Position numbers and translations under genes: made by a program | Source of the DNA: an uncultured bacterium | GTDB taxonomy: Bacteria > Hydrothermota > Tepidihabitantia > B3-TA06 > CAYQJV01 | NCBI GenBank assembly: GCA_964417925.1 | Contig: CAYQJV010000003.1 | Span: 13,941 to 77,940, forward strand | DNA length: 64,000 nucleotides | Direction of reading: 5' to 3' | The notes under the pieces: generated by a model | What the model was told of the DNA's origin: nothing | Database searches by the model: none | Seen by the model: only the letters and a program-made list of their open reading frames with translations | In this document: piece by piece, positions 1-52,961 of the stretch | Layout of the letters: each line of letters begins with the position of its first letter | Position numbering within the stretch: the first letter of the stretch is position 1

Positions 1-262
1 TGTTTTAAGATACTTTGATTTCCTTTTATTTTCAGATGAATTGGGGTATCGTAAACCCCACATAAAGGTATTTGAGGCACTGGTAGAGCTTTCACACACA
101 GAACCATCCTCCATACTTCACATAGGAGATAGATGTGACCTTGATGTTGTAGGAGCAAAAAATGCTGGATTTAAGACAGTATGGTATTCTAACAGTGATG
201 GAGAGTGTAAACTTTATGACTTTAGGGTAGATAAACTTAAAAAAATTTTGGAGGTATTATGA
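1..262 (+). CDS. HAD-superfamily hydrolase, 3' part (5' end lies outside the window)
   Basis: The frame is open from the window edge. HAD motif III/IV-like segments are present (SDELGYRKPHIKVFE; GDRCDLDVVGAKNAGFKTVWY). The ORF track starts only at TTG 41, but no in-frame stop precedes it. Confidence 0.5.
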   Translation, partial: VLRYFDFLLFSDELGYRKPHIKVFEALVELSHTEPSSILHIGDRCDLDVVGAKNAGFKTVWYSNSDGECKLYDFRVDKLKKILEVL

Positions 263-1669: not shown

Positions 1670-1697
1670 TTGACTTTTGTTTTAAAAAAGGTATACT
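1670..1697 (+). promoter_or_regulatory. Sigma70-like promoter TTGACT-16-TATACT, -10 ends 7 nt before ATG 1705 (leaderless-type)
   Basis: TTGACT at 1670-1675, 16-nt spacer, TATACT at 1692-1697. The ATG is at 1705 and there is no room for an SD. Confidence 0.4.
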
Positions 1698-1704
1698 AAA
1701 ATCT

Positions 1705-3579
1705 ATGAAAAAAATTTTGTTTTTCCTGCTGTTTATTTCTTTTTACCTTTTTCCGTATGAAAAAAGGATTTATGAGGTAAAGATGAGGGACGGGGTAAAA
1801 CTCCATACCAATGTTTATCTCCCTACAGACAAGAGTGATTTTCCTTTACCTGCAATTCTTGTTAGAACCCCTTATGGAGCAGATTTTTGGGATTTTCATT
1901 CCTCAGAGGTCTTCTGTATCACAGATACCCACAGATACATTCTGGTGGTACAGGATACACGAGGAAGATTTTTATCAGAAGGCATTGACTCTGTTTTCCT
2001 TGATGATGGATGGAGGGATGGGAAATGGGATGGATACGATGCAGTGGAATGGATTGCAGAACAGGAATGGTGCAATGGTAAAGTAGGAATGTGGGGAGGA
2101 TCGGCTTTAGGGATCACTCAGTACCTTGCTGCAGGGGCATGTCCTCCTCATCTTGTGTGCTGTTTCCCCATAGTTGCTTCTTGGAACATGTATGTAGACT
2201 GTACCTTTCCAGGAGGAGTGTTTAGAAAGTATGATGTAGAAGGATGGTTGGAGAAGCAGGGGAGTTATTACATGAAATATTACTTTGCAGAACATTCCCG
2301 TTATGATGAAGAGTGGCAGTACCTTGATGTTGGAACAAGAAAAGAACAGGTATCGGTGCCTATGTTCCATATTGGTGGATGGCATGATTTCTTTTTAACA
2401 GGTCCTCCCAAAGCATTTTCAGACCTTCAGTATTATGGGAAGGGAAAGGCGAGAGGGAATCAAAAACTTTTAATAGGTCCTTGGGTTCATTCTGTGGGAA
2501 CGAACAAGGCAGGAGAACTTACATATCCTTTAAATGCGAGGGTTGATTTTGATAGTCTTTTCTGGAGATGGTTTGATTACTGGTTAAAGGATTCTTTAAA
2601 CAATGGAATGGATGAATTTCCTACGGTTAGTTATTATTTGATGGGACCTGTAGATGAAGAAGGGAATTGGAACTATTGGAAAACTGCTGATACCTTTCCT
2701 CCTCAAGCTTTTGGGATGAAGTTCTATCTACATGGTGGAGGTAGACTGGATACATTGATGCCTGTAACAGAAGAAGAGCCCGATACCTTTGTTTATGACC
2801 CCAAAGATCCGGTCCCAACCCTTGGAGAAAACAACTTGATCTTAGAAAGGGGTCCGTATGACCAGACATCTCTGCTTTCCAGACCCGATGTTTTGGTCTT
2901 TTCAACCGATGTAATAGAAGAACCCATTGAAGTAACAGGCTATGTAAAGCTTTATCTTTTTGCATCTTCAAATAGACTGGATACAGATTTTACGTTAAAG
3001 TTGATGGATGAGTACCCTGATGGGAGAAACATGCTTATTCTTGATGGGATCTTAAGGGCAAGATACAGAAATGGATTTGACCATGAAGAGCTATTGACAC
3101 CAGGTGAGGTGTACGAATTTGTAATAGAACCAGGACCAACTGCCTATGTATTTGCACCAGGGCATAAAATAAAAATAGCAATAAGCTCTTCAAACTATCC
3201 AAAGTATGATATAAATCCAAATACTGGAGAGCCTTTTGGAAAAGAGACCGATACCCTTTCTGCAATAAATGTGGTATATCACGATGTAAATTACCCTTCC
3301 TATTTACTGCTTCCTGTAACCAATAGAGAGTTAGAAGGTGTTGAAGAGGTTGTGCTTTCCTCAACACAGGTTTTTTCAAAAAAAGGATTTATTTATAATC
3401 CTTTTTTAAAGAATGTGGATACAAAAATATACTCAGTTGGAGGAAGAAGAATAATGGAGAAGAGGCTTAAACCAGGGGATAAAATGAGTTTAAAAAACCT
3501 ACCTGTTGGAATCTACATTGCCCTGTTTGTAAGCGAAGGAAAAGTTTTAAAGAAAGAAAAAATAATAAAGGTGGAATGA
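1705..3579 (+). CDS. Secreted CocE/NonD-family (peptidase S15, X-Pro dipeptidyl-peptidase-like) hydrolase with T9SS-type C-terminal sorting domain
   Basis: N-terminal signal peptide MKKILFFLLFISF. The CocE/NonD hallmark LPAILVRTPYG and the GGSALG nucleophile elbow are present. The last ~80 aa (IYSVGGRRIMEKRLKPGDKMSLKNLPVGIYIALFVSEGKVLKKEKIIKV) match the Por secretion tail (T9SS CTD) pattern. Confidence 0.7.
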   Translation: MKKILFFLLFISFYLFPYEKRIYEVKMRDGVKLHTNVYLPTDKSDFPLPAILVRTPYGADFWDFHSSEVFCITDTHRYILVVQDTRGRFLSEGIDSVFLDDGWRDGKWDGYDAVEWIAEQEWCNGKVGMWGGSALGITQYLAAGACPPHLVCCFPIVASWNMYVDCTFPGGVFRKYDVEGWLEKQGSYYMKYYFAEHSRYDEEWQYLDVGTRKEQVSVPMFHIGGWHDFFLTGPPKAFSDLQYYGKGKARGNQKLLIGPWVHSVGTNKAGELTYPLNARVDFDSLFWRWFDYWLKDSLNNGMDEFPTVSYYLMGPVDEEGNWNYWKTADTFPPQAFGMKFYLHGGGRLDTLMPVTEEEPDTFVYDPKDPVPTLGENNLILERGPYDQTSLLSRPDVLVFSTDVIEEPIEVTGYVKLYLFASSNRLDTDFTLKLMDEYPDGRNMLILDGILRARYRNGFDHEELLTPGEVYEFVIEPGPTAYVFAPGHKIKIAISSSNYPKYDINPNTGEPFGKETDTLSAINVVYHDVNYPSYLLLPVTNRELEGVEEVVLSSTQVFSKKGFIYNPFLKNVDTKIYSVGGRRIMEKRLKPGDKMSLKNLPVGIYIALFVSEGKVLKKEKIIKVE

Positions 3580-7240: not shown

Positions 7241-7951
7241 TTATTTCTTTACATACTTTCCACCATTTTCCTGAGCAAGGGTGGAAAGGAGATATTCATC
7301 TTGATCAGGCCCAAGTCCAATTGTATGTAAAACAACCTTTTTATCCTTGTTCCATTCTCTAACAGCCTCTATTATCCCTTGAGCATCTGTTACTGCTCCT
7401 TTATTTGCACCACCATCAGAGAGAAAGATGATAGCCTCTGGTTGATAGTTAAATGCTTCCTTTAGCGCATCGTATATGTTTGTTCCTTCCCATATTGCCT
7501 TAATTCCATTCACATATAGAACTGCCTGATTTCTATTTGAAGAATTTGCCTCAATCAAACTTCCTTTCCATTTCTTGACATCTCCACTAAATGTAAGGAT
7601 GTCAAACTTAACTCCGTCTTTCAAACCTTTAATTGCAGGTATTAACTGCCTTTTTGCCTCACCCAGTTTGGTTGCCTCTTGAGCAACCCTTTCTGAAAGT
7701 GTTTCTGCAATCTTTCCTGCTATACCTCCTCCTACTTTCTTTTCTATCAATTCTGCTGTTTTTTCTATTGCCTTTCCCTTGAGTTGTTCAGGAATGCTTC
7801 CTTCATCTTTGCCTTCCATACTTCCTGAGATATCAAGGACAAAAACCACACTTTTGTAAGGGGAGAGGTCTATTGAATAAAACTCCTCTGAGGTTTTTAA
7901 AAAATAGCAGGATACCAATGTAATAAATGCTGTTATTATTATTTTTCTCAC
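7241..7951 (-). CDS. von Willebrand factor A (VWA) domain lipoprotein
   Basis: Signal/lipobox ...ITLVSC. The MIDAS motif VVFVLDISGSMEG and downstream VWA segments (TNIYDALKEA; IIFLSDGGAN) are present. The start is GTG preceded by GGAGG. Confidence 0.7.
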   Translation of the reverse strand: MRKIIITAFITLVSCYFLKTSEEFYSIDLSPYKSVVFVLDISGSMEGKDEGSIPEQLKGKAIEKTAELIEKKVGGGIAGKIAETLSERVAQEATKLGEAKRQLIPAIKGLKDGVKFDILTFSGDVKKWKGSLIEANSSNRNQAVLYVNGIKAIWEGTNIYDALKEAFNYQPEAIIFLSDGGANKGAVTDAQGIIEAVREWNKDKKVVLHTIGLGPDQDEYLLSTLAQENGGKYVKK

Positions 7952-8068
7952 GTTACCTCCTTTCTTTTTTAATTTTATTTAACAAAAATAAAAAGTCAAA
8001 GTTAAGAAGAAGGTATGAAATTTTCTTGACAAATTAAAGTTTTTGATTAAATTTTATAAATGCAAAAC

Positions 8069-8144
<76 letters not shown>

Positions 8145-8172
8145 TTTTGTTTTATTTTTTTAATTCACCCCC

Positions 8173-8889
8173 ATGGAGACGCAATTGCATAATATTAAAG
8201 AACTTTTAAGAAATTTACAGGATGTTGATGAGGAAATAGTACGAATAGAAAATGATTTAATAGAGATTCCTGAGAAAATAAAAAAGTTAGAAGAAAAAAT
8301 AAAAGATGAAAATCAAAATCTTCAACAGGCAGAGGAGGGAATTAAAGATCTTAAAAAGAACGAGAAATTGAAAGAACTTTCTTTGCAAGAAACAGAGGAA
8401 AAAATTGCAAAACTATCTACTCAGCTTTATTCTGCAAAGACCAATGAAGAGTACAAGGCATTTTTACGAGAGATAGAATTTGCAAAACAGGAAAAGAGGA
8501 AAATAGAGGATGAGATACTGGAATTAATGGAGGAGATAGAAGAAAAAGAAAAGAAACTTCCGGAAGTAAAGAAAAAAATTGAGGAAAATATTAAAAAATT
8601 GAAAGATGAGAAGGAAAAAGAAAACAAAAGAATAAAGGAGTTAGAAGGAAAGATAAAAGAACTTACTGAAACACGTGGAAGAATTTTAAAAGAAATTCCA
8701 GAACAATATGTAAAAATATATGAGAAGATAAGAAAAAATAAAGAGGGTATAGCAGTTGCAAGGGTAACAGAGGATAACAGGTGTTCAGTATGTCTTAATC
8801 CTGTGCCCTTGCAAAAGGTAATAGAGATAAAGAATCAACAGAACAAACTTTTCTTCTGTGAATACTGCGGAAGAATCCTTATTGACTGA
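8173..8889 (+). CDS. COG1579-type coiled-coil protein with C-terminal C4 zinc ribbon
   Basis: Long K/E-rich coiled coil, then CSVCLNPVPLQ...FFCEYCGRILI. Proteins of this type are typically found next to RNase H, as here. Confidence 0.7.
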   Translation: METQLHNIKELLRNLQDVDEEIVRIENDLIEIPEKIKKLEEKIKDENQNLQQAEEGIKDLKKNEKLKELSLQETEEKIAKLSTQLYSAKTNEEYKAFLREIEFAKQEKRKIEDEILELMEEIEEKEKKLPEVKKKIEENIKKLKDEKEKENKRIKELEGKIKELTETRGRILKEIPEQYVKIYEKIRKNKEGIAVARVTEDNRCSVCLNPVPLQKVIEIKNQQNKLFFCEYCGRILID

Positions 8890-15543: not shown

Positions 15544-16158
15544 TCATTTTTCAAGGACTTTTCTTATTTCAGAGAGAAGATGACTTGGACTTTTTATTGG
15601 GGATTCAATATTTTCCAAGATCTCCTCTGCAGATTTTGTCTTTATTGTTAATCCCTTTAATCTTTCATAAAGTGTATTTTTATCCACGGGAAAGTCAACT
15701 CCTTTTATTCTCCTCAGCACTTCAACACTCCAAGTAATTCCGAGACTTTCAGAAGCCTGTTGAAATGCGTGTATGAATACGGTTAAATTATCCCTTCCTT
15801 CTTTTATTTCTTTATAAGCAAGTTTTGCAAGCCCTCCTGCTGTGTGGGCTTTAATTGTTTTTTCCTGTAATTCTCCTTCTATTTTCTTCATTACAAGTTC
15901 TGGATCTGCTCTTAAGATATTCCTAACAGTCTGTCTTGTTAAACCAAGGAATTCTGCTATTTCATCTTCTGTTTTGTAGGACTCCTCAGAAAGGACAATT
16001 GCATAGGATGCCTCCATTAAACTTGTTATCCAGGTAAGATTTCGTAGTTCAATCAACTTTCTTGGTCCTCCCAGTAATTCAAGGGCTTTTAAAAAAACTC
16101 TTATTGCAGTTGCATCTACATCAAACTCCCTTATTTCTTCAGGTTTGATTACCGGCAT
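15544..16158 (-). CDS. Putative HTH-domain transcriptional regulator
   Basis: Probable helix-turn-helix DEIAEFLGLTRQTVRNILR. It is the first gene of the minus-strand CCL-like/HD/aconitase-like operon. The start is most likely the ATG at 16158 preceded by GGAGG. The ORF track extends to a GTG at 16164. Confidence 0.4.
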   Translation of the reverse strand: MPVIKPEEIREFDVDATAIRVFLKALELLGGPRKLIELRNLTWITSLMEASYAIVLSEESYKTEDEIAEFLGLTRQTVRNILRADPELVMKKIEGELQEKTIKAHTAGGLAKLAYKEIKEGRDNLTVFIHAFQQASESLGITWSVEVLRRIKGVDFPVDKNTLYERLKGLTIKTKSAEEILENIESPIKSPSHLLSEIRKVLEK

Positions 16159-16216
16159 CTTCACCTCCGTTTTTAAGTTATTATACTTTGCTGTATTCCT
16201 ATGTCAATATTCTTAT

Positions 16217-16244
16217 TTGACATAATACCTATGAGGGGTATAAT
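16217..16244 (+). promoter_or_regulatory. Consensus sigma70 promoter TTGACA-16-TATAAT for small ORF 16264
   Basis: TTGACA at 16217-16222, 16-nt spacer, TATAAT at 16239-16244. AGGAGGAGG SD at 16255-16263. The 7-bp inverted repeat ATGTCAA (16201-16207) / TTGACAT (16217-16223) overlaps the -35. Confidence 0.45.
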
Positions 16245-16263
16245 CTTAAAAATAGGAGGAGGT

Positions 16264-16485
16264 ATGGAAAAACTCAAGAGATACGGATGGGTGTTTGTGG
16301 TAGTTATGTTGGGAGTTGCAGGTGGTTATGCAATAGCCAGAGCAGAATGGGATTCTTCGGGTTCCTCTTCCTCTGACAGTTATACCCTTAAAAGAATAGA
16401 GAATCATCTTGAAAATATATCTGAAGAATTGAAAGAACTTAACCGTATTCTCAGAGATATAAAAGATGAGATTAACAATAGATAA
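16264..16485 (+). CDS. Small single-pass membrane protein with C-terminal coiled coil (FtsB/DivIC-like architecture)
   Basis: MEKLKRYGWVFVVVMLGVAGGYAIA (TM), a Ser-rich linker, then the heptad-like RIENHLENISEELKELNRILRDIKDEINNR. It has a strong SD and a perfect promoter. The ORF track starts at an upstream in-frame codon, 16201. Confidence 0.45.
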   Translation: MEKLKRYGWVFVVVMLGVAGGYAIARAEWDSSGSSSSDSYTLKRIENHLENISEELKELNRILRDIKDEINNR

Positions 16486-16504: not shown

Positions 16505-16532
16505 TTGACTTAACAATATAAAGGCATATAAT
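16505..16532 (+). promoter_or_regulatory. Sigma70-like promoter TTGACT-16-TATAAT upstream of nrdJ (with SD AGGAGG at 16545-16550)
   Basis: TTGACT at 16505-16510, TATAAT at 16527-16532. The ATG is at 16562. Confidence 0.45.
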
Positions 16533-16561
16533 ATTTTATTCAGAAAGGAGGAATAAAAGGA

Positions 16562-18697
16562 ATGAAACACCCTGCAAAAATTAGAAAAAGAGATGGAAGG
16601 ATAGTGGATTTTGACCAAGAAAAAATAACAAATGCGATATTTAAGGCTGCAAAGGCTGTAGGTGGTTCAAATTATGAACTTGCAAGGGAACTTTCTCGTA
16701 AAGTTGTTGAAATATTGAATGAAAAATATGGTGAAGATGGTATCCCCTCTGTTGAAGAGGTTCAAGATATCGTTGAAAAGGTTTTGATTGAAGAGGGTCA
16801 TGCGAAGACTGCAAAGGCATATATTTTATACCGTAAGAAGAGGACAGAACTTAGAGAGGCAAAGCAGTTCTTTATAGGAGTTCCTGATGAACTTAAACTC
16901 TCTTTAAATGCTCTAAAGGTTCTTGAAAGGAGGTATTTGTTAAAGAATGAGAAGGGAGAAGTTATAGAGACTCCTGCTCAACTATTCAGAAGGGTTGCAA
17001 GGCACATTGCTTCTGCTGATTTGAACTACGACCCAAATGCAGATGTTAAAAAACTGGAGGATGAGTTCTATGAGATGATGGTTAACTTTGAATTTCTCCC
17101 CAACTCTCCAACTCTAATGAATGCTGGAACAGAGCTTGGTCAACTTGCTGCATGCTTTGTTATTCCTGTGGAGGACTCTCTTGAGGCTATTTTTGAAGCA
17201 GTTAAGTATGCTGCTCTTATTCATAAAACAGGAGGAGGGACAGGATTTTCCTTTTCAAGATTAAGACCAAAAAATGATGTGGTTAAAACCACAGGGGGAA
17301 TTGCTTCAGGTCCTGTATCCTTTATGAGGGTTTTTGATGTTGCAACCGATGTGATAAAACAAGGAGGGAGAAGAAGGGGAGCAAATATGGGGGTTCTGCG
17401 GGTTGACCATCCTGATATTTTAGAGTTTATAACTGCAAAGGAAAAGGAAGGGATGCTTACAAACTTCAATATATCGGTTGCTGTTACCGATGAATTTATG
17501 CATGCAGTTGAAAAGGATGAGAACTATCCTTTGAGAAATCCAAGAACAGGGGAGGTGGTGCAGAAGATAAGAGCAAGAGATGTTTTTAATCTTATTGTGA
17601 CAATGGCATGGAAAAATGGAGATCCGGGAATGATATTTATAGATAGAATAAATAGAGATAACCCTACCCCTGCTCTTGGAGAGATAGAGGCAACAAATCC
17701 ATGTGGAGAACAACCTTTACTTCCCTATGAAGCATGTAATCTTGGTTCCATAAACCTGTCAAAATTCGTAAATGGAGGAAAAATAGATTTTGAAAGGCTT
17801 GCAAAGGTTGTGCACAAGGCAGTGCACTTTCTTGATAATGTAATTGATAAAAGTAAGTATCCATTAAAAAAGATTGAAGAAATGGTAAAAGGGAACAGGA
17901 AGATAGGTCTTGGAGTAATGGGATTTGCAGATATGCTTTTAAAACTTGGGATTCCTTATGATTCTGAACAGGCACTTGAGACAGCTGAAAAGGTTATGCG
18001 TTTTATTAAAGAACAGGCAGAAAAGGCGACGATTGAACTTGCAAAAAAGAGAGGTCCTTTTCCAAACTTTGATAAAAGCGTTTACAAACAAAGAGGAGAA
18101 CCTGAGAGGAGAAATGCCACTTTAACTACCATTGCTCCGACAGGCTCTATAAGCATAATTGCCAATACCTCTTCAGGAATAGAGCCTTTGTTTGCGGTTG
18201 TGTTTATAAGAAATGTAATGGAAGGTACAGAACTATTGGAGGTAAATCCAGTTTTTGAACAGATTGCAAGAGAAAGGGGATTTTATTCTGAAAGGTTGAT
18301 GAGGGAAATAGCAAGGACAGGTTCGGTTCAGAAGATTAAAGGAGTTCCAGGTGATGTAAAAAGGATATTTGTGACGGCCCATGAGATTGCTCCTAAATGG
18401 CATGTTCTGATGCAGGCAGCGTTTCAACGCTATGTGGATAATGCAGTTTCAAAAACCGTTAATCTTCCATATCATGCTACTCCAATGGATGTAGCTGATG
18501 TGTTCTGGCTTGCTTACAGAACAGGATGTAAAGGAATAACTGTTTATAGGGATAGGAGTAAACCTACCCAGGTTCTTTATCGTGGAGAAGTGAAAAAGAA
18601 AGGTTCAGTGTATGATTCTTTTGCAGAATCCCTATCCGAGAAATATTTTTCGGTTGATTCAGAGTATGCAGGTGGATGTCCTACCTGCAGTCTTTAA
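16562..18697 (+). CDS. nrdJ: Class II (adenosylcobalamin-dependent) ribonucleotide reductase with N-terminal ATP-cone
   Basis: ATP-cone KIRKRDGRIVDFDQEKITNAI. Active-site region NPCGEQPL...EACNLGSINL. C-terminal tail ...GGCPTCSL typical of NrdJ. Confidence 0.9.
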   Translation: MKHPAKIRKRDGRIVDFDQEKITNAIFKAAKAVGGSNYELARELSRKVVEILNEKYGEDGIPSVEEVQDIVEKVLIEEGHAKTAKAYILYRKKRTELREAKQFFIGVPDELKLSLNALKVLERRYLLKNEKGEVIETPAQLFRRVARHIASADLNYDPNADVKKLEDEFYEMMVNFEFLPNSPTLMNAGTELGQLAACFVIPVEDSLEAIFEAVKYAALIHKTGGGTGFSFSRLRPKNDVVKTTGGIASGPVSFMRVFDVATDVIKQGGRRRGANMGVLRVDHPDILEFITAKEKEGMLTNFNISVAVTDEFMHAVEKDENYPLRNPRTGEVVQKIRARDVFNLIVTMAWKNGDPGMIFIDRINRDNPTPALGEIEATNPCGEQPLLPYEACNLGSINLSKFVNGGKIDFERLAKVVHKAVHFLDNVIDKSKYPLKKIEEMVKGNRKIGLGVMGFADMLLKLGIPYDSEQALETAEKVMRFIKEQAEKATIELAKKRGPFPNFDKSVYKQRGEPERRNATLTTIAPTGSISIIANTSSGIEPLFAVVFIRNVMEGTELLEVNPVFEQIARERGFYSERLMREIARTGSVQKIKGVPGDVKRIFVTAHEIAPKWHVLMQAAFQRYVDNAVSKTVNLPYHATPMDVADVFWLAYRTGCKGITVYRDRSKPTQVLYRGEVKKKGSVYDSFAESLSEKYFSVDSEYAGGCPTCSL

Positions 18698-18702: not shown

Positions 18703-19997
18703 ATGGGTAAAAAAAAACAGTTGCCATCGTTGGAAGGCCAAATGTAGGAAAATCCACATTATTTAATAGAATTACAAGGAAAAAGATAGCAATTACTCTA
18801 AGAGAGCCGGGAATTACCAGAGATGTAATTGAAGAAGAGTGTGAGTGGCAAAACAAGAAGTTTTTACTTTTAGATACCGGAGGCTATATACCACAGCCAT
18901 CGGATTCCATTTCTGAAAAGGTAAAAAAACAGGTTTTTTATGCTTTACAAAGAGCAGACTTAGTGCTTTTTGTAGTAGATGCAAAGGAAGGAATTCATCC
19001 TCTGGATTTTGAAGTGGCAGAGATTTTGAGAAGGTCAAACAAAGAAGTTATCCTTGTAATAAACAAGATGGATGTGAAGACTGCTTCCTTCAATGTGTGG
19101 GAGTTTACAAGACTCGGTTTTGAAAAAGTTTATAAGGTTTCTGCTGAGCATGGAAAAGGAATAGGAGAGCTTTTGGATGAGATAACCAAAGATATAAAAG
19201 AAGAAAAAGAATTAAATGGAGATAGAATAAATGTGATAATTGTTGGAAGACCAAATGTAGGAAAGTCCACGCTCCTTAATGCATTGGTAAAAGAGGAAAG
19301 AGTTATTGTGGATAATACTCCAGGGACTACAAGGGACCCAGTTAAAGTAGAGAAGGATAAAGAAGGAGTTAAGTTTTCGCTCATAGACACTCCAGGGGTT
19401 AAAAAGAAAAGCAAGATAAAAGATATAGTAGAGTTTCTTTCTTCTAAGAGACTTGAAAAAAGGGTGATGGAAGCAGATGTAGCAGTGGTGGTAATAGATG
19501 CTCAAGAGGGACTCACACATCTTGAAAAGACCATTACCGGATGGTTGCTTGAAGAAGGGAAAGGAGTGATTGTAGTGGTAAATAAGTGTGATCTGTTAAA
19601 GAAAAGGGAAGTTCCTGAAATTGTTCAATATGTAAAAGCCTCTTTGCATTTTGCAAGAAACATTCCCGTAGTCCCAATTTCTGCATTAAAAGAAGAGGGA
19701 TTAGAGAAAATAGAAAATGAAGTTGTAGATGTAGCAAGAGAGAGGAAGAAAAAAATATCTGCTAAAACATTGGAAGAGGTATTTGAGAACATAATTTCTT
19801 CTCATCCTCCGCCAAGAGGAGCGATAATTAAAAGAATAGTGCAGGTTGGTATAGCACCACCGAGTTTTATTATGTTGTCTCCAAAACCTGAGAGAATAGA
19901 GCATTCTTATTTGAGGTACATAAAGAACAGATTATATGATTATTTTGGGTTTAAAGGGGTTGACATAAGAATAACAGTAAAAAGGAAAATAAAATAG
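18703..19997 (+). CDS. der: Ribosome-biogenesis GTPase Der/EngA (tandem GTPase + KH-like), reading frame interrupted in an A9 homopolymer near the start
   Basis: ATG 18703 (MGKKK) runs into a stop at 18745-18747. The -1 frame from 18711 encodes KKTVAIVGRPNVGKSTLFNR (G1) ...DTGG... plus a second GTPase domain (VIIVGRPNVGKSTLLN...DTPG...NKCD) and a KH-like C-terminus. One extra A, or a -1 slip in A9 (18709-18717), gives the canonical MGKKKTVAIVGRPNVGKS. Confidence 0.8.
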
Positions 19998-20005: not shown

Positions 20006-20033
20006 TTGACATTCATAATATTCTACATACAAT
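20006..20033 (+). promoter_or_regulatory. Sigma70-like promoter TTGACA-16-TACAAT, -10 ends 6 nt before folD ATG (leaderless-type)
   Basis: TTGACA at 20006-20011, TACAAT at 20028-20033, ATG at 20040. Confidence 0.4.
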
Positions 20034-20039
20034 TTTGGG

Positions 20040-20900
20040 ATGGAAACTTTAATCCTTGATGGAAGAAAGGCTTCTGAGGAAATAAGGATGGAACTTGTGA
20101 GGGAGGTGAAGGAGTTAAATAAAAAGGGAAAAACTCCGAAACTCGTGTTTATTACAGTAGGGGATAATCCAGCATCAAAAAGTTATGTAAGGGCAAAAGA
20201 AAGGGCTTGTGTAAAAGTTGGTATTGTTACAGAAAATAAAGAGTTTAAAGAAGATGTTGAGACAAAAGAGGTGGTAGACAAAATTAAAGAGTTGAATGAA
20301 AATGATGAGGTGGATGGGATAGTGGTACAGCTTCCTCTTCCTAAGAAGATCGATAAGGAACAGGTTTTAAATGCAATAAGTATAAATAAAGATGTTGATT
20401 GCTTAAATCCTCTAAATCTTGGCTATCTTATGATTAAAGAACCCATTTTTTATCCTAATACCCCAATGGCAATAATTGAACTTTTAAAATTTTATGGAAT
20501 AAAAATTGAAGGAAGTTACGTGGTGATCCTTGGTAGAGGTAAGACTGTAGGAGTTCCGCTTGTAAATATCTTACTAAAGAAAGGTCCTTATGGAAATGCT
20601 ACTGTTACGGTATGCCATACAAAAACCAGGAATTTAAAGGATATTACATCAAGTGCAGATATTCTTGTTTCTGCAATTGGTGTACCTGGTTTTGTAAAAG
20701 GTGATCTTATAAAGGAAAATGCAGTAATCGTAGATGTAGGGATAAATGTGATTGAAGGGAAGATTGTTGGAGATGTAGATGCTAACTCTGTAATAGGTAA
20801 AGCAAAAGCTCTTTCTCCAGTTCCGGGTGGAGTAGGGCCAATGACGGTGACGATGTTGTTAAAAAATGTGATAAAGGCTGCAAAGAGGAATGTTGCTTGA
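20040..20900 (+). CDS. folD: Bifunctional methylene-THF dehydrogenase / methenyl-THF cyclohydrolase
   Basis: ILDGRKASEEIR...LVFITVGDNPASKSYVRAK...GRGKTVGVP...PVPGGVGPMTV. Confidence 0.9.
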   Translation: METLILDGRKASEEIRMELVREVKELNKKGKTPKLVFITVGDNPASKSYVRAKERACVKVGIVTENKEFKEDVETKEVVDKIKELNENDEVDGIVVQLPLPKKIDKEQVLNAISINKDVDCLNPLNLGYLMIKEPIFYPNTPMAIIELLKFYGIKIEGSYVVILGRGKTVGVPLVNILLKKGPYGNATVTVCHTKTRNLKDITSSADILVSAIGVPGFVKGDLIKENAVIVDVGINVIEGKIVGDVDANSVIGKAKALSPVPGGVGPMTVTMLLKNVIKAAKRNVA

Positions 20901-29053: not shown

Positions 29054-29406
29054 TGAATAGAAAGGAGAAAATAGTTCTGTATTTTCTTTGTGTTATTCTT
29101 CTTTTGGGAATTATAGGAGAGTATGTAAAAAAGTTAAAGGAGGAAAAAGAAATAGAAAGAATTAAATTATACATGGAAGAGAAAACCACAGAGGAAGATA
29201 TCTTTCCTGTAGAGATTAATACCGCTTCTTTTGAAGAGTTGGTAAAGATTCCAGGAATAGGTCCAGTAATTGCAAACAGGATAATTGAAGAAAGGAGAAA
29301 AAAACCTTTTGAAAACATAAAGGAACTTTTGAGGGTAAAAGGAATAGGAAAGAAAAAGTTGAATATTATCAAAAATTATGTTATAATAAAAAAATGGGAA
29401 GAATAA
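29053..29406 (+). CDS. comEA: ComEA-type helix-hairpin-helix DNA-binding protein
   Basis: N-terminal TM segment, then VEINTASFEELVKIPGIGPVIANRIIEER...LLRVKGIGKKKL (tandem HhH). Confidence 0.7.
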   Translation: MNRKEKIVLYFLCVILLLGIIGEYVKKLKEEKEIERIKLYMEEKTTEEDIFPVEINTASFEELVKIPGIGPVIANRIIEERRKKPFENIKELLRVKGIGKKKLNIIKNYVIIKKWEE

Positions 29407-35908: not shown

Positions 35909-36454
35909 GTGTGTGAAAAAGTTGCAGAGATGAATCAGAAACATACCGCAATGGTTATAGATGTAAAGAGTGAAGGTATATATGAGGCAGATGGTTTAAT
36001 AACAGATGAAAAGAATCTTGCTCTATGTGTAAGAGTTGCAGATTGCTATCCTGTTTTCCTTTTTTCCGAGGATGAGAAAATAAAAGGAGTCTTGCATGCT
36101 GGGTGGAGAGGGGTATACAGAGGAATTATTGAGAATGGAGTGAAACTTTTTAAAAAATTTACACAAAAAAGGATTTTTTATGCTGTAGGTCCTGGGATAT
36201 GTGGTAAATGTTATGAAGTGGGGAAAGAATTCCTTGATTATTTTAAAGATTATCCATATGTTTTTGAAAAAAAGAAAAACAAGTTATTTTTGCACCTTTT
36301 AAAGTTGATAGAGGAGAAGATGAAAAGGCTTGGGGTTGTTAGGTACAAGGTTTTAAAACTGTGTACTTTTGAAAATAAAGATTTTTATTCTTCCAGAAGA
36401 GGCGATAGAGAAAAAAGAAATATCTGCGTGATACTTCACAAGAAGAGTGAGTAA
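35909..36454 (+). CDS. pgeF: PgeF/YfiH-family (DUF152) purine nucleoside phosphorylase / peptidoglycan editing factor
   Basis: ADCYPVFLF and HAGWRG motifs, plus the C-terminal Cys-His region GPGICGKCYEVG. Confidence 0.7.
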   Translation: MCEKVAEMNQKHTAMVIDVKSEGIYEADGLITDEKNLALCVRVADCYPVFLFSEDEKIKGVLHAGWRGVYRGIIENGVKLFKKFTQKRIFYAVGPGICGKCYEVGKEFLDYFKDYPYVFEKKKNKLFLHLLKLIEEKMKRLGVVRYKVLKLCTFENKDFYSSRRGDREKRNICVILHKKSE

Positions 36455-36546: not shown

Positions 36547-36574
36547 TTGACAGTAACCAATAATAAGGTATAAT
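36547..36574 (+). promoter_or_regulatory. Sigma70-like promoter TTGACA-16-TATAAT upstream of NYN gene (40-nt leader with GGAGG)
   Basis: TTGACA at 36547-36552, TATAAT at 36569-36574, ATG at 36615. Confidence 0.4.
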
Positions 36575-36614
36575 TTTTTAACAAAAGTATTTAAATAGAT
36601 GATGGAGGTAAAGA

Positions 36615-37268
36615 ATGCAGAGAAAACAACGTACATGTATAATTCCTGTTTTTCAAAGAATAGCAATTTTTATTGATGGATGGAACTTTAAATATGCCAC
36701 ATACGATGCTTTTGGAATTCAAGTTGATTATAAAAAATTACTTGATTTTTTCTCAAAAGATGCTATTCTTATTCGTGCTTATTATTATACAGGTGAATGG
36801 GACGATACATCCATAGAGCATTATCTGAAGCTTACATCTCCTTCTGATCCTGAAGCCAAGAGGGCAGAACTTCTGCACCACAGAGAGGAACAGCAGAAGT
36901 TCTGGAGATTTTTAAGTAGAAATGGATACAGAGTGGTTAAGAAACCAATAAAAATAGTTAAAAATGTACAGGGTGATGTACAACTCAAGGCAGATCTTGA
37001 CCTTGAGATTGCAATTGATATGTTAAGTCTTGCTGATAAATGTGATAAAGAGATTCTCGTCTCAGGGGATGGGGATTTTACTCCTCTGGTATATGCAGTA
37101 GGAGAAAAAGGAGTTAGAGTTGCAGTAGTGAGTACTCAACATCCGGATGCGTACAAAAAGGCAAATTATAGGGCTTCGGATGATTTACTTGATGCTGCGG
37201 ATGAATTTATCCCTATTGAAAATATAAAAGATTTTATAAAAAGAGAAGATAAAAAAGAAATAATTTGA
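36615..37268 (+). CDS. NYN-domain (LabA-like, COG1432) protein
   Basis: IAIFIDGWNFKYA...ILIRAYYYTG...ILVSGDGDFTPLV is a typical NYN/PIN-like core. Confidence 0.7.
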   Translation: MQRKQRTCIIPVFQRIAIFIDGWNFKYATYDAFGIQVDYKKLLDFFSKDAILIRAYYYTGEWDDTSIEHYLKLTSPSDPEAKRAELLHHREEQQKFWRFLSRNGYRVVKKPIKIVKNVQGDVQLKADLDLEIAIDMLSLADKCDKEILVSGDGDFTPLVYAVGEKGVRVAVVSTQHPDAYKKANYRASDDLLDAADEFIPIENIKDFIKREDKKEII

Positions 37269-41636: not shown

Positions 41637-42676
41637 TTGCCCTCCTTATTTTTAAATTGAGAAAGCAACTTAAAGGCCTTTTGGGCATATAAGTTAAGTG
41701 GATCTATTTCAATACATTTTTTGAGGTATTCAAGAGCTTTCTTGGGATCCTTTTTAAAAAACTCTACTCCTTTTTTATACAGGAGTTCACATAATACAGA
41801 GTTTATAAGTCCATCGCTTTTTTTTAAGTTATGTGCCTTTTGCAGATCTGCAATTGCTTCGTCAATTTTGCCAAGTTTTTTATACAGAATTCCTCTATTG
41901 AGATAAAATTTGTAGTTATTGGGAGAAAGTTGTATAGCTTTTGTGTAATCGCTCAGGGCATCCTTGTATTTTTCAATTTTTTCATATGCCTTACCACGGT
42001 TGCTGTAAAATAAAGGATTTTCGGGATCAAATTTTATTGCATTGGTATAATCATCTATTGCTCTATCGTATTTCTTAATCTCAGAAAATAGCCTTCCTCT
42101 GTTGTTATAAGCAAGAGCATAAGTGGAATCCAAAGATAAGGCTTTGGTGTAATAAAATAAGGCTTTTTGCTTTTCTTGATTATATTCGTAACCCATTGCA
42201 AGGTTATGGGTTATTAAAGGATTAAGGGAGTCTATTTCATAAGCTTTCTTGAAGTAAATTAATGCACTATCATATTGTTCGGTCTTAAAATACACAATTC
42301 CAAGGTTATTGTAATACTCGGCATTTTCAGGAGAAAGTTCTATTGCGGTTTTAAAATCCAGTATTGCTGCAGCATAATTTTTAAGATTTAGATAGGCAGT
42401 TCCTCGGTTATAGTAATATATTGCCTTTTCAGGGGAAATAGCTATTGCTTTATTAAAATAATCTACCGCAGTGTTATAATCCCTTAAAGAGAAATAACAT
42501 AGTCCTAACCCATTATATGCTTCTGCGTTGTAAGGATTTTCTTTTAATACTTTATTAAATTCTTTTATCGCCTTTTCATAATTACCTGTAGTATAGTAGT
42601 TTTTTGCTTTTGAAAGGTAATACGATGCACATCCTAATAAAAGCAAGAAAATGGTGAAAAATTTTCTGTTATTCAT
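41633..42676 (-). CDS. Tetratricopeptide-repeat lipoprotein
   Basis: Signal peptide with lipobox LLGC. It contains 8 or more canonical 34-aa TPR units (AEAYNGLGLCYF..., AIYYYNRGTAY..., etc.). Confidence 0.7.
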   Translation of the reverse strand: MNNRKFFTIFLLLLGCASYYLSKAKNYYTTGNYEKAIKEFNKVLKENPYNAEAYNGLGLCYFSLRDYNTAVDYFNKAIAISPEKAIYYYNRGTAYLNLKNYAAAILDFKTAIELSPENAEYYNNLGIVYFKTEQYDSALIYFKKAYEIDSLNPLITHNLAMGYEYNQEKQKALFYYTKALSLDSTYALAYNNRGRLFSEIKKYDRAIDDYTNAIKFDPENPLFYSNRGKAYEKIEKYKDALSDYTKAIQLSPNNYKFYLNRGILYKKLGKIDEAIADLQKAHNLKKSDGLINSVLCELLYKKGVEFFKKDPKKALEYLKKCIEIDPLNLYAQKAFKLLSQFKNKEGK

Positions 42677-42683
42677 TATATTT

Positions 42684-42712
42684 AATTATCCTCTTAAAAA
42701 GTAAACTGTCAA
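42684..42712 (-). promoter_or_regulatory. Sigma70-like promoter (TTGACA-17-ATAATT on minus strand), -10 ends 7 nt before TPR start codon
   Basis: Plus strand: TGTCAA at 42707-42712 and AATTAT at 42684-42689. Start codon CAT at 42674-42676. Confidence 0.35.
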
Positions 42713-42844
42713 GTTTATTGATTTGATTCTGTTGGATGTATAATTAAAAATCATGGAGCTTTATGGAGGTAGCCCATTTTTAAAAAAGTATTAAAAGATT
42801 ATTTTCTTTTAGGTTCCATTTTAACATTTATTTTATTATCTTTT

Positions 42845-43292
42845 TTGTTCCCCTGTAAAATAAGAAAATATCCTGAATTTGTTGATTGGACAACAATGGT
42901 TATTTTAACTTCGCTCATTATAATTACTACAGGTTTAAAGGAAAGTGGATTCTTCCAGCATATTTCCGAGAATTTGGTTTTTGGATTTAAAAACGAAAGA
43001 AAGCTCGCTTTGGTGATGATAATAATTTCTGTGTTTTTTTCTATGTTTTTGACAAACGATATTACACTTTTTATTTTGATTCCCATTACCCTTGAAATGC
43101 AAAAAAGACTCAAAAATGATTTAAGAAAGTTAATAATTTTTGAAAACTATCGCAGTAAATGTTGGCTCTCTTTTAACTCCTGGAGGGAATCCACAAAATG
43201 TATTTATATGGCACAGATGGGATGTTCCTTTTGTTAAATTCATATGGAGAATGCTTCCAGCAGAATTGGTTTGTTTTGGGTACTCTTTATAA
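42845..43292 (+). pseudogene. Remnant of an ArsB/NhaD-superfamily (YbiR-like) anion permease; frameshifted and 3'-truncated
   Basis: The frame from 42845 gives a permease N-terminal TM hairpin (...FLTNDITLFILIPITLEM) and then diverges. The 43137-43292 frame gives IAVNVGSLLTPGGNPQNVFIW, the family hallmark. Only ~150 of the expected >400 aa are present, and 43293-43502 is non-coding. Confidence 0.55.
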
Positions 43293-43467
43293 TTGCTTTA
43301 TTTGAATTCAAAGATAATGCTTTATATTTACATGTTAAATTTTATAATCACAAAGTTAACAAACTATACCTCTTAAATTTTTTCTGCATTCAGTAAAAGA
43401 AAATCTACTTGAATTTTATATAACAGGCATTGTGCTTTCACAACTTATAAGTAATATCTCTTTTAAA

Positions 43468-43495
43468 TTGACTTTTTGAAATATTCTAAGATAAT
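43468..43495 (+). promoter_or_regulatory. Sigma70-like promoter TTGACT-16-GATAAT, -10 ends 7 nt before ATG 43503 (leaderless-type)
   Basis: TTGACT at 43468-43473, GATAAT at 43490-43495. Confidence 0.35.
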
Positions 43496-43502
43496 TTAAA
43501 TA

Positions 43503-43979
43503 ATGAAAAAAATAGTTTTTTCTGGATTTGTGGCGTTTATTTTCTGTTGTGGATATTCCACTCGGGCTTTACTGCCTCCTTATTTAAAATCCATCTATAT
43601 TTCTCAGCCTGTAAATAATACTACAAAACCTATGTTGGAGGAAGTACTCAAACGAAATCTTGAGATGAGTTTTATTAAAGATGGAAATCTAAAGGTAGTG
43701 GGATCTATTGATGAAGCTTCTCTCATATGTGAGACCACAATAAAAAATTATTCAAAGTCTCCTGTGGAGTATACTGTAGATCAATTTGTACGACACTGGA
43801 GAATTACCATTACAGTACATGTGAAATGTACTGACCAAATAAAAAACAGAATTTTTTGGGAAGGAGATGTTTCTTTTTGGGAAGATATTCAACGAATAGA
43901 GGATGAGGAAAAAGCTATAGATACTCTTTTTAAAAGGATTTCACAGGAGATTGTAGTAAAAACAGTTACCAATTGGTAG
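43503..43979 (+). CDS. Small lipoprotein (LptE-like size and architecture?)
   Basis: Signal peptide with ...FIFCCGYS lipobox-like Cys, followed by a ~130 aa beta-rich domain. The LptE assignment is speculative. Confidence 0.4.
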   Translation: MKKIVFSGFVAFIFCCGYSTRALLPPYLKSIYISQPVNNTTKPMLEEVLKRNLEMSFIKDGNLKVVGSIDEASLICETTIKNYSKSPVEYTVDQFVRHWRITITVHVKCTDQIKNRIFWEGDVSFWEDIQRIEDEEKAIDTLFKRISQEIVVKTVTNW

Positions 43980-46744: not shown

Positions 46745-46772
46745 TTGACAAAACTTGAAAATTGGGTAATAT
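46745..46772 (+). promoter_or_regulatory. Sigma70-like promoter TTGACA-16-TAATAT, -10 ends 6 nt before ATG 46779 (leaderless-type)
   Basis: TTGACA at 46745-46750, TAATAT at 46767-46772. Confidence 0.4.
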
Positions 46773-46778
46773 TTTTAG

Positions 46779-47963
46779 ATGGAGTTGTTTAAAAAGTGTG
46801 AAGATTTTTATCCTGTTGTGGAGAGGGCTTACAGGGAGAATTATTATCCTTATTTTATTCCAATAGATTCCCAGCCGGACCACAATGTTGTGATTTCTGG
46901 TAAGAGGATGATAATGCTTGGTTCAAATAACTATCTTGGCCTTACTTCTGATCCCAGAGTAAAAAAAGCAGCGATAGAGGCTGTAGAGAAGTACGGTACA
47001 GGTTGTACAGGCTCCAGATTTCTGAATGGTACGCTTGATATCCATGTGAAGTTGGAAAGGGAGCTTGCTGAGTTTTTTGAAAAGGATGATTGTATTGTTT
47101 TTTCCACTGGATATCAGGCAAATCTTGGAGTAATTTCTGCTCTTGTTCAGAAAGGCGATTATGTAATTACTGACAAATTGGATCATGCCTCAATAATTGA
47201 TGGATGTAGGTTATCTTTTGGAGAAATGGTGAGGTTTGTCCATAATGATATGGAGAGTCTTGAGAATGTATTGAAGAAGCTTCCTAAGGAAGCAGGAAAG
47301 TTGATAGTGGTAGATGGGATATTTTCAATGGATGGTGATATTGCAAAACTTCCTGAAATAGTTTCTCTTGCAAAAAAATATGGAGCAAGGGTGATGGTGG
47401 ATGATGCCCATGCTGTTGGAGTTCTGGGTGAGAGAGGGGCAGGCACAGCAGAGTATTTCGGTATGCTTTCTCAGGTAGATTTAATAATGGGAACATTCAG
47501 TAAATCATTTGCATCTCTTGGGGGGTTTGTGGTGGGGGAGAAAAAGGTAATAACCTATATAAGGCATCATGCAAGATCCCTTATATTTTCTGCGAGTATG
47601 CCTCCTTCTGCAGTAGCAACTGCGAGAAAGGCACTTGAGATAATAAAAAATGAGCCTGAAAGGAGGAAAAAGTTGTGGAAAAATACAGAGAAGATGCTCA
47701 AGGGATTTAAAAGCATTGGTTTTGATACAGGAACTGCAGAAACACCGGTTATCCCTATAATAATAGGGGATGATATGCTTACCATAAGGTTTTGGAAAGA
47801 ACTTTTTGAAAATGGAGTTTTTGTAAATCCAGTTCTTCCTCCTGCAGTACCGCCTAAGAAATCTCTTTTAAGAACCAGTTATATGGCAACCCATGAGGAG
47901 GAGGAACTGGATGAGGCACTTTCAATTTTTGAGAAAATTGGTAAAAAACTGGGGATAGTATGA
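46779..47963 (+). CDS. PLP-dependent alpha-oxoamine synthase (serine palmitoyltransferase / Kbl / BioF family)
   Basis: LGSNNYLGL. The PLP-lysine segment [14 protein letters not shown] and [15 protein letters not shown] are present. No bioA/bioD or tdh gene nearby. It is translationally coupled (ATGA) to a GNAT-like acyltransferase. Confidence 0.8.
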
Positions 47964-49069
47964 TAGAGATAGAAGAGGTTAAAGAAAAAGATATAACTAA
48001 GTTTATAAAGTTTGCGTGGAAGATTTATAAAAATGATAAAAATTGGGTACCTCCGTTGATTTCAGAGCAAAAAGAAATCTTATCTTTGAAGAAGAATCCG
48101 TTTTTTGAACATGCAGAGGGGATTTACTTTATGGCTTATAAAAATGGAGAACCTGTAGGTAGAATTGCAGGTTTTGTAGACAGAAATCATATTGAATTTC
48201 ATCAAGAAAATGCAGGATTCTTTGGATTTTTTGAATGTATCAATGATTTTGAAGTTGCCCGCGTATTGTTTGATTCGGTGAAGAATTGGCTTAAGGGAAA
48301 GGGAATGGAAATAATGAGAGGTCCTATGAATCCTTCTACAAACGATGAGTGTGCTTTCTTACTTGAGGGATATGATTCTCCACCTGTTATAATGATGACC
48401 TATAATCCTCCGTATTATCATGATCTTGTAAAACGTTATGGGATGAGAAAGGCAAAGGATCTGTATGCATATTACCACTGGACACACAGACCGTTACCTG
48501 AGAAGTTAATGAGAATAGTGGAGAAGTTGAAGAATAAAAAGGAAATTCAGGTAAGGCCTATCACACCTGAAACACTGGAAGAAGATATAAAAAAGATCAA
48601 AATCATATATAACTCAGCTTGGGCAAAGAACTGGGGATTTGTTCCTATGACAGAGCATGAGTTTGATGTAATGGTGGAGAAATTGAAACAGATATATATT
48701 CCAGAACTTGCATTACTTGCAGAAATAGATGGAGAACCTGCAGGTGTTAGTGTTACCATTCCTGATTATAATCAGGTGCTTATACATTTGAATGGAAGAT
48801 TAACTCCTTGGGCTATTATTAAGTTCTTTTATTATAAGAGAAAGGTAGATCAATTAAGACTTTTAATATTAGGGGTAAGGCCTGAATTTCAAAAAACAGG
48901 GGTGGATGCATTGTTATATTATCATACCTTTGAAAATGCAAAAAAGTTGGGTTACAAAGGAGGAGAAATTTCATGGATTCTTGAAGATAACTATATGATC
49001 ATAAGACCTATTGAGATGTTTGGGGCAAAGTTATATAAGAAGTATAGAATATATGAGATTGATATCTAA
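47960..49069 (+). CDS. Tandem-GNAT-fold N-acyltransferase (candidate ceramide/aminolipid N-acyltransferase)
   Basis: The C-terminal half has GNAT motif [18 protein letters not shown]. The N-terminal half has a GNAT-like beta-alpha pattern. The start overlaps the stop of the AOS gene. Confidence 0.45.
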
Positions 49070-52238: not shown

Positions 52239-52961
52239 TTAATCACCCATTTCAAAAAACTTGGTGTAAAGAGTTCTTAAATTTAAAGCATTTTTCTCCT
52301 CTTCAAGAGCTTTTTTAAACAACTGAAGTTTGTGAATAATATCTTCTTTAAAGATGTGTTCCTTATTATTTAATTCATTGATAGCAAAAGATACCCCTGA
52401 AATCCACTGTTTCTTTACCTCTTCATTCTTTAACAGTACTTCAAAAGTACTGTCACTTAACATCCAGTTTTTGTTTATCTTTTCTAATACATAAAAATGA
52501 GGTAAGAAAGGAGATGCTATACCATAACACCCAAGGTTATCATGTCTCCAAGTGAGAATAATGTATCTGTTTTTATATATTCCTGAGTATCCATCAACAT
52601 TGAAATCCATGTATTCTCCATCCAAATATATTACAAGTCTTCCATAGGAATGGATTCCTGTTCCACTGCATACAGTTTTTACTATCACTATATTTTTAAG
52701 TCTCCCATTTACAAGAAGTTTATCTGTTAACATTTGAGGAAATAGATTTTCCATGATCTCTCCGTATCCATCAGTAAAAATGGTTATTTTTTCTCCTTCA
52801 TCTTCAATTATCAGGGAATATTCAAATGTTTTAAAGAACTCATCTTCTTCCATATGAAGGATCTCCATCTTTACAGTTTCAGGGATTCCATCTTCATCAA
52901 TATCAGTTGATACCTGCCATCCAGCAATAGATATGAAAACGTATATTATCATAGTTATCAT
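52239..52961 (-). CDS. Hypothetical protein with N-terminal signal anchor
   Basis: MITMIIYVFISIAGW hydrophobic start. No recognised motif. It sits directly upstream of purF and the ispH-ubiA fusion in the same operon. Confidence 0.3.
   Translation of the reverse strand: MITMIIYVFISIAGWQVSTDIDEDGIPETVKMEILHMEEDEFFKTFEYSLIIEDEGEKITIFTDGYGEIMENLFPQMLTDKLLVNGRLKNIVIVKTVCSGTGIHSYGRLVIYLDGEYMDFNVDGYSGIYKNRYIILTWRHDNLGCYGIASPFLPHFYVLEKINKNWMLSDSTFEVLLKNEEVKKQWISGVSFAINELNNKEHIFKEDIIHKLQLFKKALEEEKNALNLRTLYTKFFEMGD

Follow-up and report, generated by a model that had tools for sequence, protein, structure and literature searches.

Near-consensus promoters abut the start codons of operon-heading genes in a WOR-3-like bacterium, suggesting leaderless mRNAs beside Shine-Dalgarno-led genes

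The stretch of DNA considered here, called the window throughout, is a 64 kb piece of contig CAYQJV010000003.1 from an uncultured hot-spring bacterium that is known from metagenome assemblies only and whose genome is carried by samples SRR15988952 and SRR21418557. It is 96% coding, in a genome of 35% GC whose intergenic DNA has 30% GC, and it contains six genes, each at the head of a transcription unit, in which a promoter of near-consensus sequence lies almost directly against the start codon. An earlier note on this DNA had drawn attention to these genes, and when the sequence is read directly all six sites have the same anatomy, namely TTGAC(A/T), exactly 16 nucleotides (nt), a -10 hexamer, 5-8 nt, and then ATG. 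At every site the second base of the -10 hexamer is A and the sixth is T. The -35 element and the six sites stand as the note had them, but its consensus of TTGAC(A/T)-16/17-TAnnAT needs adjusting, as the spacer is always 16 nt and the hexamer reads TATACT once and GATAAT twice. Likewise, the -10 does end near the start codon, but at a distance of 5-8 nt rather than 5-7 nt, and the positions hold to within one base, the -35 of the sixth site beginning at 52994 and the -10 of the fifth ending at 42685.

The first site (1670-1707, forward strand) has TTGACT at 1670-1675, 16 nt, TATACT at 1692-1697, and 7 nt before the ATG at 1705. It heads a six-gene unit whose first gene encodes a secreted S15 (X-Pro dipeptidyl) peptidase, in which the Pfam S15 domain starts at residue 29, behind a signal-like N-terminus. 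At the second site (20006-20042, forward), TTGACA (20006-20011) is followed after 16 nt by TACAAT (20028-20033) and after 6 nt more by the ATG of folD at 20040, the first gene of a unit that runs folD-ispA-dxs-sprA and onwards. The third (43468-43505, forward) consists of TTGACT (43468-43473), 16 nt, GATAAT (43490-43495), 7 nt, and the ATG of lptE at 43503; it heads the unit lptE-rlmD-amidohydrolase, and the LptE N-terminus, MKKIVFSGFVAFIFCCG, is a signal/lipobox sequence (...IFCCG). The fourth (46745-46781, forward) has TTGACA (46745-46750), 16 nt, TAATAT (46767-46772), 6 nt, and ATG 46779, which belongs to a kbl/bioF-like aminotransferase gene heading a two-gene cassette with a gene for a GNAT-like protein. 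The remaining two sites are on the reverse strand. The fifth (42674-42712) reads TTGACA (42712-42707), 16 nt, GATAAT (42690-42685), 8 nt, and ATG 42676, the start of a TPR lipoprotein gene that heads a two-gene unit with a gene for a Roadblock/LC7 protein; the lipoprotein N-terminus, MNNRKFFTIFLLLLGC, holds a lipobox (...LLLGC). The sixth (52959-52994) reads TTGACT (52994-52989), 16 nt, TAATAT (52972-52967), 5 nt, and ATG 52961, and the gene encodes a 240-aa membrane protein at the head of a unit that continues with purF and ispH.

What these six genes lack is a Shine-Dalgarno (SD) sequence, as had been claimed. Duplex energies with the anti-SD lie between +1.8 and -5.8 kcal/mol at their starts (+1.8 at folD, -0.4 at lptE, and -4.0 at the peptidase gene), against -8.9 to -15.3 kcal/mol at 17 other genes, and at least 17 of the 59 genes in the window are preceded by a strong GGAGG(T). 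The window has no 16S rRNA gene, and the anti-SD was inferred from the GGAGG(T) consensus, which implies that it is of the normal kind. We listed every intergenic TTGACW promoter in the window together with its downstream sequence, and at 16158 and 16264 we replaced the start of the longest open reading frame (ORF) by the SD-preceded ATG that is visible in the sequence. Spacing between the -10 and the start codon is bimodal, at 5, 6, 6, 7, 7, and 8 nt in six genes without an SD and 14-40 nt in six genes with a strong GGAGG(T), and no gene in the window falls between the two classes. Downstream of each of the six leadered promoters, GGAGG(T) stands 5-9 nt ahead of the start codon, and the same is true in the flanking contigs of this genome. 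Many internal operon genes in the window are also without an SD.

The sequence covered from the source genome is the 64 kb window and about 11 kb of flanks, and relatives add roughly 100 kb. The flanks contribute two further leaderless-type genes in locus L110, one for a protein with a metallo-beta-lactamase fold (6 nt) and one for an extracytoplasmic function (ECF) sigma factor with a GTG start (5 nt), as well as 4-5 SD-led genes with leaders of up to about 60 nt. Leaderless-type promoters therefore make up about half of the recognisable TTGACW promoters at protein genes (6 of 12 in the window, 8 of about 17-18 with the flanks), and the mixed strategy that the earlier note proposed is borne out. 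A possible seventh site in the window (29359-29396, forward) has TTGAAT-17-TATAAT and then 6 nt before the ATG of ruvX. This promoter lies within the 3' end of the upstream comEA-like gene, and it is kept in the related locus L103, but coding constraint could account for that.

None of the six long ORFs offers a start codon ahead of its ATG, and an in-frame stop lies 1-14 codons upstream in each (a single codon upstream at the fourth site). The encoded proteins point to the same starts. The FolD Pfam domain begins at residue 6, the kbl-like protein has an MxLFxKC N-terminus in common with its homologues, those in metagenome loci starting with MD(L/V/I)FxKC at residue 1, with the N-terminus aligned from residue 1 in most of 80 homologous loci, and signal or lipoprotein peptides are encoded at the starts 1705, 43503, and 42676. 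Downstream alternative starts at sites other than the first and the sixth have no convincing SD. The called starts appear from this to be the true translation starts, with an ambiguity between codons 1 and 4 at the sixth site. An AAGAGG upstream of the fifth site was considered as an SD and rejected, as it falls within the promoter spacer, upstream of the -10 and of the expected transcription start.

The motifs are far from randomly placed. Among the 2248 ATG trinucleotides on both strands of the window, only 7 fit the pattern TTGACW-16/17-(-10)-5..8-ATG; six of these are the starts named in the earlier note, and one more (8060) falls at the promoter of tRNA-Val. Against the window background, at least 6 hits among 59 gene starts have a binomial probability of 3e-13; for at least 6 among 20 operon heads it is 6e-18 under a first-order Markov null of intergenic DNA, which gives 2.3e-4 per site where 6 are seen among about 20 operon heads. 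A looser promoter criterion of 9/12 still yields P = 1e-6 to 1e-8. Compared with 100 dinucleotide shuffles, matches of at least 11/12 number 10 instead of 2.3 +/- 1.4, and perfect 12/12 matches number 4 instead of 0.08. The density of TTGACW in the 2.6 kb between genes (4% of the window) is 9.7-fold that in coding DNA, and intergenic TTGACW elements paired with a -10 do so 14 times at 16 nt, 3 times at 17, and once at 18, with 0-3 at any length other than 16 between 12 and 21. The textbook spacer is 17 bp (canonical range 17 +/- 1), which puts 16 at its short end, and the 16-nt spacer also predominates in loci L023, L103, and L107-L110. Depending on the null model, P runs from 1e-6 to 1e-18, and the motifs go far beyond what AT-rich DNA would produce by chance.

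By their TTGACA/TATAAT hexamers, their spacing, and their enrichment upstream of genes, these are promoters of the sigma-70 (housekeeping) type. The tRNA-Val gene (8069-8144, forward) is driven by the same kind of promoter (TTGACA-16-TAAATT, 8026-8053), which shows the motif to be a general housekeeping promoter. Beyond this tRNA, a gene for a CT398-like zinc-ribbon protein starts 28 nt downstream (ATG 8173), with neither an SD (ttcacccccATG) nor a recognisable promoter in 8145-8175 on the forward strand, and it may be co-transcribed with tRNA-Val or start elsewhere. tRNA-Val was the only match in the Rfam scans of the whole window, of 52900-53200, and of 1300-1710.

The window also encodes SprA and PorX, which belong to the type IX secretion system, and LptE. 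The best named matches of SprA are from candidate division WOR-3 (33-35% identity), Stahlbacteria, and Hydrothermales, and a ten-gene synteny (folD-ispA-dxs-sprA-comEA-ruvX-yceG-ackA-por) is common to the window and JAFGSK010000003 from a WOR-3 metagenome-assembled genome (MAG). On the basis of these matches and this synteny, the source organism is placed in or near WOR-3, a candidate phylum rich in thermophiles. Because the genome carries type IX secretion genes, an affinity of the lineage with the FCB (Fibrobacteres, Chlorobi, Bacteroidetes) group is suggested.

Relatives were reached via FolD and SprA homologues, and in them the promoter of folD can be followed over considerable divergence. 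The window has TTGACA-16-TACAAT-6-ATG; L103, L107, and L021 (FolD 76% identical; L021 is from Great Boiling Spring sediment) have TTGACT-16-TACAAT-7-ATG; L109 has TTGACA-16-TACAAT-6-ATG; L108, labelled ‘candidate division WOR-3 bacterium’ and of 51% GC, has TTGACA-16-TAAAAT-5-ATG; and L022 (FolD 60% identical) has TTGACA-16-TACAAT-12-ATG. In the alignment of five lineages, TTGAC, TA.AAT, and ATG are invariant together with one T inside the coding region, while the spacer and the bases before the ATG are all variable, and the conserved block of promoter and ATG is, as judged from this alignment, a functional footprint. A GGG just before the folD ATG was considered as a miniature SD and rejected, as it is not kept in the relatives (ttttatc, aaaaag, atact).

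The second gene that could be compared is the kbl-like one. Its closest relative, in L023 (70% identity), has TTGACT-16-TAAAAT-5-ATG, whereas roughly three quarters of 28 homologues, judged by eye, have an SD of the GAGG or GGAG type. From this contrast it follows that the leaderless trait would track the lineage and not the gene family. In the GC-rich locus L028, the kbl-like gene is independently leaderless-like. The aminotransferase gene and the gene for its 369-aa GNAT-like partner form a two-gene cassette (46779-49069) found in about 50 metagenome loci (L023-L101); the two are adjacent in about 40 diverse contigs and a few kb apart in the rest, and the second protein is 43-57% identical, which suggests a conserved pathway, possibly of N-acyl amino-acid or lipid synthesis.

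Other genes in these relatives have the same arrangement, including fabD (12/12 promoter, 5 nt) and a DUF2520 gene in L103, two further genes in L023, and thiC in L108, where a 12/12 promoter lies 7 nt before the ATG (3018-3053, reverse strand). The gene thiC is usually preceded by a thiamine pyrophosphate (TPP) riboswitch leader, and as the L108 promoter ends 7 nt before the ATG, it leaves no room for one. For the other four of the six genes, the fetched loci offered little to compare. A tblastn search of all these loci with the other leaderless genes and the genes next to them matched only the GNAT partner of the kbl-like gene, and orthologues of the S15 peptidase, the TPR lipoprotein, LptE, and the membrane protein were not found there. 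A scan of genome contigs with RlmD gave matches of 25-32% identity in unrelated genomes and no usable relative, and an LptE search returned four proteins, of which the one with context (L105, 28% identity) has another gene order and no leaderless lptE.

We believe that these observations are best explained by leaderless transcription. The housekeeping (sigma-70/sigma-A type) RNA polymerase would bind the -35 TTGAC(A/T) and the TAnnnT-like -10 hexamer 16 bp apart and initiate 6-9 nt after the -10, which would put the start at, or within 1-2 nt of, the A of ATG. At all six sites, the operon's leading gene would have its first start codon at this position. An mRNA with a 5'-terminal AUG and no SD would then take the leaderless route, the 5' AUG being bound directly by the ribosome together with initiator tRNA, as is established for E. 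coli model mRNAs, mycobacteria, and Deinococcus. Both modes of initiation would thereby operate side by side, with roughly 40-50% of the recognisable promoters leaderless. The earlier note's proposal that transcription begins at or next to the A of ATG is supported in this sequence by the start codons, the absence of an SD, the bimodal distances, and the conservation. That most of the six mRNAs carry leaders of 0-2 nt we give a probability of about 0.8, while the exact transcription start and the leaderless translation mechanism at the six sites are inferred.

Several points weigh against this reading. For the start of transcription at the six sites, a typical distance behind the -10 is assumed. 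The promoter of the sixth site is the weakest (9/12), and a second ATG at codon 4 leaves its start ambiguous between codons 1 and 4. The 8-nt gap at the fifth site may mean a leader of 1-2 nt or a long discriminator, and the 12-nt gap at folD in L022 implies a 5' untranslated region of about 5 nt, not zero. At the first site, codon 27 is an in-frame ATG, and GAGGT stands 5 nt ahead of it (SD energy -7.0 kcal/mol). The folD gene follows der on the same strand at only 42 nt, and leadered read-through transcripts may coexist with leaderless ones. Comparative support spans two of the six genes only.

Three other explanations have to be set against leaderless transcription. The one we take most seriously, though we consider it improbable, is that the genes are transcribed mainly as leadered mRNAs, from upstream promoters or by read-through, and translated without an SD by way of an unstructured A/U-rich leader, protein S1, or coupling, with the adjacent motifs being minor or inactive. 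The closeness of folD to der fits this, as does a 12/12 promoter 119 nt upstream of the sixth site, and the many SD-less internal operon genes mean that SD-independent initiation on leadered mRNA must exist here. However, a strong intrinsic terminator (53046-53004, reverse strand) lies immediately upstream of the sixth site, separating its gene from the upstream promoter and blocking read-through, and the third and fifth sites are divergent, with no same-strand gene upstream and only a decayed transporter pseudogene between them. Because of this terminator and this divergence, the promoters at sites three, five, and six are the natural source of transcripts. Moreover, a coupling of -10 to ATG at 5-8 nt that is improbable by chance and kept over deep divergence is not expected of an inactive motif.

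Even less probable, in our view, is that the starts are mis-called, and that ordinary promoters precede short leaders that merely look coding, with the true ATG or GTG further downstream. Codon 27 at the first site, with its GAGGT, and codon 4 at the sixth are what such a view can draw on, but a start at codon 27 would cost the S15 peptidase conserved N-terminal sequence, and three proteins would forfeit a signal peptide or lipobox if their starts were moved. The position of the FolD domain, the alignment of the kbl-like N-terminus, and the poor SDs at the other alternatives speak against it as well. The last explanation, chance matches in AT-rich intergenic DNA, gains something from the base composition and from the loose matches of at least 9/12, which are not enriched (44 against 57 in shuffles of the first 20 kb). 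It is refuted by the enrichment of strict matches, the Markov null, the fixed 16-nt spacer, and the conservation in relatives, and we give it next to no weight.

The surroundings of the six sites hold a number of other features. Upstream of the first site, the intergenic stretch 1312-1669 is unusually long (393 nt from 1312 to ATG 1705), with no Rfam match and no obvious ORF. The 12/12 promoter near the sixth site (TTGACA-16-TATAAT, 53108-53081, reverse strand) is followed by a transcript of about 70 nt, closed by a GC-rich terminator hairpin of 13 bp (dG -27.8, z -5.4) with a U-run behind it. Complementarity to GGAGG SD sequences is seen both in the unpaired 5' part of this transcript, CACCCCUCCCUCCCU, and in its loop, UUCUCCCCUCC. 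The stretch 53108-53004 is a candidate small RNA, one that might base-pair with ribosome-binding sites (RBSs); it has no Rfam match (best E 0.25). The pseudogene between the third and fifth sites is a decayed gene for a CitMHS-type transporter (42753-43300, forward), truncated and broken into at least three frames, with Pfam matches at profile positions 36-124 and 128-169, and its first ATG (42753) itself stands behind a TATAAT ending 8 nt upstream. In der (engA), ahead of folD, the first start codon of the reading frame comes as late as 18963. Further upstream the frame for the expected N-terminus, KKTVAIVGRPNVGKS, is open, but it is out of frame with ATG 18703 across a run of nine A (18709-18717, forward); one extra A would give MGKKKTVAIVGRPNVGKS, as in the Der of a relative. 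An assembly error in the homopolymer, slippage during transcription, or a -1 frameshift on A-AAA-AAA could lie behind the break in frame. Logan assembly L020 has the same 344-aa call for der.

The leadered class comprises six genes in the window. For nrdJ, the NYN-domain gene, the ORF at 16264, and the VWA gene, the earlier note had described normal leaders with GGAGG, and promoter, leader, and GGAGG are indeed all seen. The gene at 7951 for a VWA-domain protein (7949-7999, reverse) has TTGACT-16-TAAAAT, a 20-nt leader with AGGAGGT, and a GTG start. The gene at 16158 (16156-16207, reverse) has a 12/12 promoter, TTGACA-16-TATAAT, and a leader with GGAGGTG before ATG 16158, and the gene at 16264 (16217-16266, forward) has a 12/12 promoter and a 19-nt leader with AGGAGGAGGT before its ATG. 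The promoters of these two stand back to back in 16180-16244, their -35 elements 9 nt apart (16207-16202, reverse; 16217-16222, forward), and drive divergent SD-led genes whose functions are unassigned. At nrdJ (16562; 16505-16564, forward), TTGACT-16-TATAAT is followed by a 29-nt leader with AGGAGG and an ATG; at the NYN-domain gene (36615; 36547-36617, forward), a 12/12 promoter by a 40-nt leader with GGAGGT and an ATG; and at the gene for a fumarase C-terminal-domain protein (60475; 60473-60521, reverse), TTGACT-16-TATCCT by an 18-nt leader with AGGAGGTG and an ATG. A YfiH/Cu-oxidase_4 ORF (35909-36454, forward) begins with GTG and aligns to its Pfam profile from position 44 only; it looks short at its N-terminus, and its upstream start or frame may be wrong. 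In the flank of the source genome (L110, 6464-6552, reverse), a TetR-family gene has a leader of about 60 nt with a palindrome, AACCGACTGAATGGTCGGT, that is a likely operator, and it faces the divergent 12/12 promoter of a radical-SAM gene.

A leaderless pattern of this kind is already described in other bacteria (PMC6028130, PMC3160421). GeneMarkS-2 places in its ‘group C’ those genomes with a Pribnow box 6-8 nt before the starts of first-in-operon genes, in 25-50% of operons, and an RBS elsewhere; these are mainly Actinobacteria and Deinococcus-Thermus, such as Mycobacterium tuberculosis and Deinococcus deserti, while 89.9% of FCB-group genomes belong to ‘group B’, with a non-SD RBS (PMC6028130). 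The present genome is like group C in that the -10 abuts the start of first-in-operon genes and the remaining genes use an RBS, which amounts to a dual model. It differs in that every leaderless promoter has a near-perfect TTGAC(A/T) at a fixed 16-nt spacing, whereas group C lineages mostly show only a TAnnnT -10 and a poorly conserved -35, and also in being AT-rich, WOR-3-like, and endowed with type IX secretion genes.

A second precedent is the ‘TA-led’ genes of Zheng et al. (2011), in which TANNNT starts about 12 nt upstream and was read as a promoter abutting the start; they made up 21-32% of genes in two of five Aquificae genomes and 2.4% in one of 37 Bacteroidetes/Chlorobi genomes, in a survey that scanned 20 nt upstream only, with the -35 outside its scope (PMC3160421). 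The likeness to the Aquificae genes lies in the thermophilic host and the TAtaaT-like signal. To our knowledge, no WOR-3 genome was to hand when that survey was made. In E. coli systems, lambda cI from PRM and the tetR of Tn1721 are transcribed from sigma-70 promoters with +1 at the A of AUG, and their translation needs the 5'-terminal AUG but no SD; they are single examples within a genome dominated by SDs, whereas here about half of the promoters, including those of housekeeping genes (folD, lptE, the purF operon), are concerned. Bacteroidota use -33 TTTG / -7 TAnnTTTG promoters with a weak or absent SD (‘group B’). The source genome shares with them the type IX secretion genes (SprA, PorX), and the lineages are possibly related, but it has canonical TTGACA/TATAAT promoters and strong GGAGG SDs. 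The intergenic density excess is 3.8-fold for TAnnTTTG, compared with 4.9-fold for TATAAT and 9.7-fold for TTGACW, and for TAnnTTTG it is consistent with AT-richness alone. A literature search for WOR-3 together with leaderless found no papers in the library searched. What is new here is the lineage (WOR-3-like, with type IX secretion), the full -35 consensus, and the rigid 16-nt spacer; the strong SD in the other class of genes is a further local peculiarity.

While no new mechanism is revealed, the bacteria in which leaderless mRNAs are frequent gain an uncultured thermophilic lineage that is AT-rich and has type IX secretion genes. Gene and start callers applied to this lineage's MAGs should combine the leaderless promoter and the SD in a dual model, as start finders that rely on the SD alone tend to shift leaderless starts, and the position of the promoter can itself fix the start. 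The folD promoter abuts the ATG across lineages whose SprA is about 32% identical and whose GC content runs from 35% to 51%, and about 40-50% of promoters are leaderless, with a full TTGACA/TAnnnT consensus and a rigid 16-bp spacer. On these grounds, leaderless expression may be ancient in WOR-3 and common to the whole phylum, not the quirk of one genome, a proposition to which we would give even odds. The deep conservation of leaderless folD bears on whether leaderless initiation is ancestral or was gained repeatedly. Bacteroidota, the best-known members of the FCB group, gave up both the canonical promoter and the SD. If the phylum-wide reading is true, WOR-3 preserves or has re-invented a dual system of SD and leaderless initiation, and it would be a useful outgroup for understanding how translation and transcription signals changed in the FCB superphylum.

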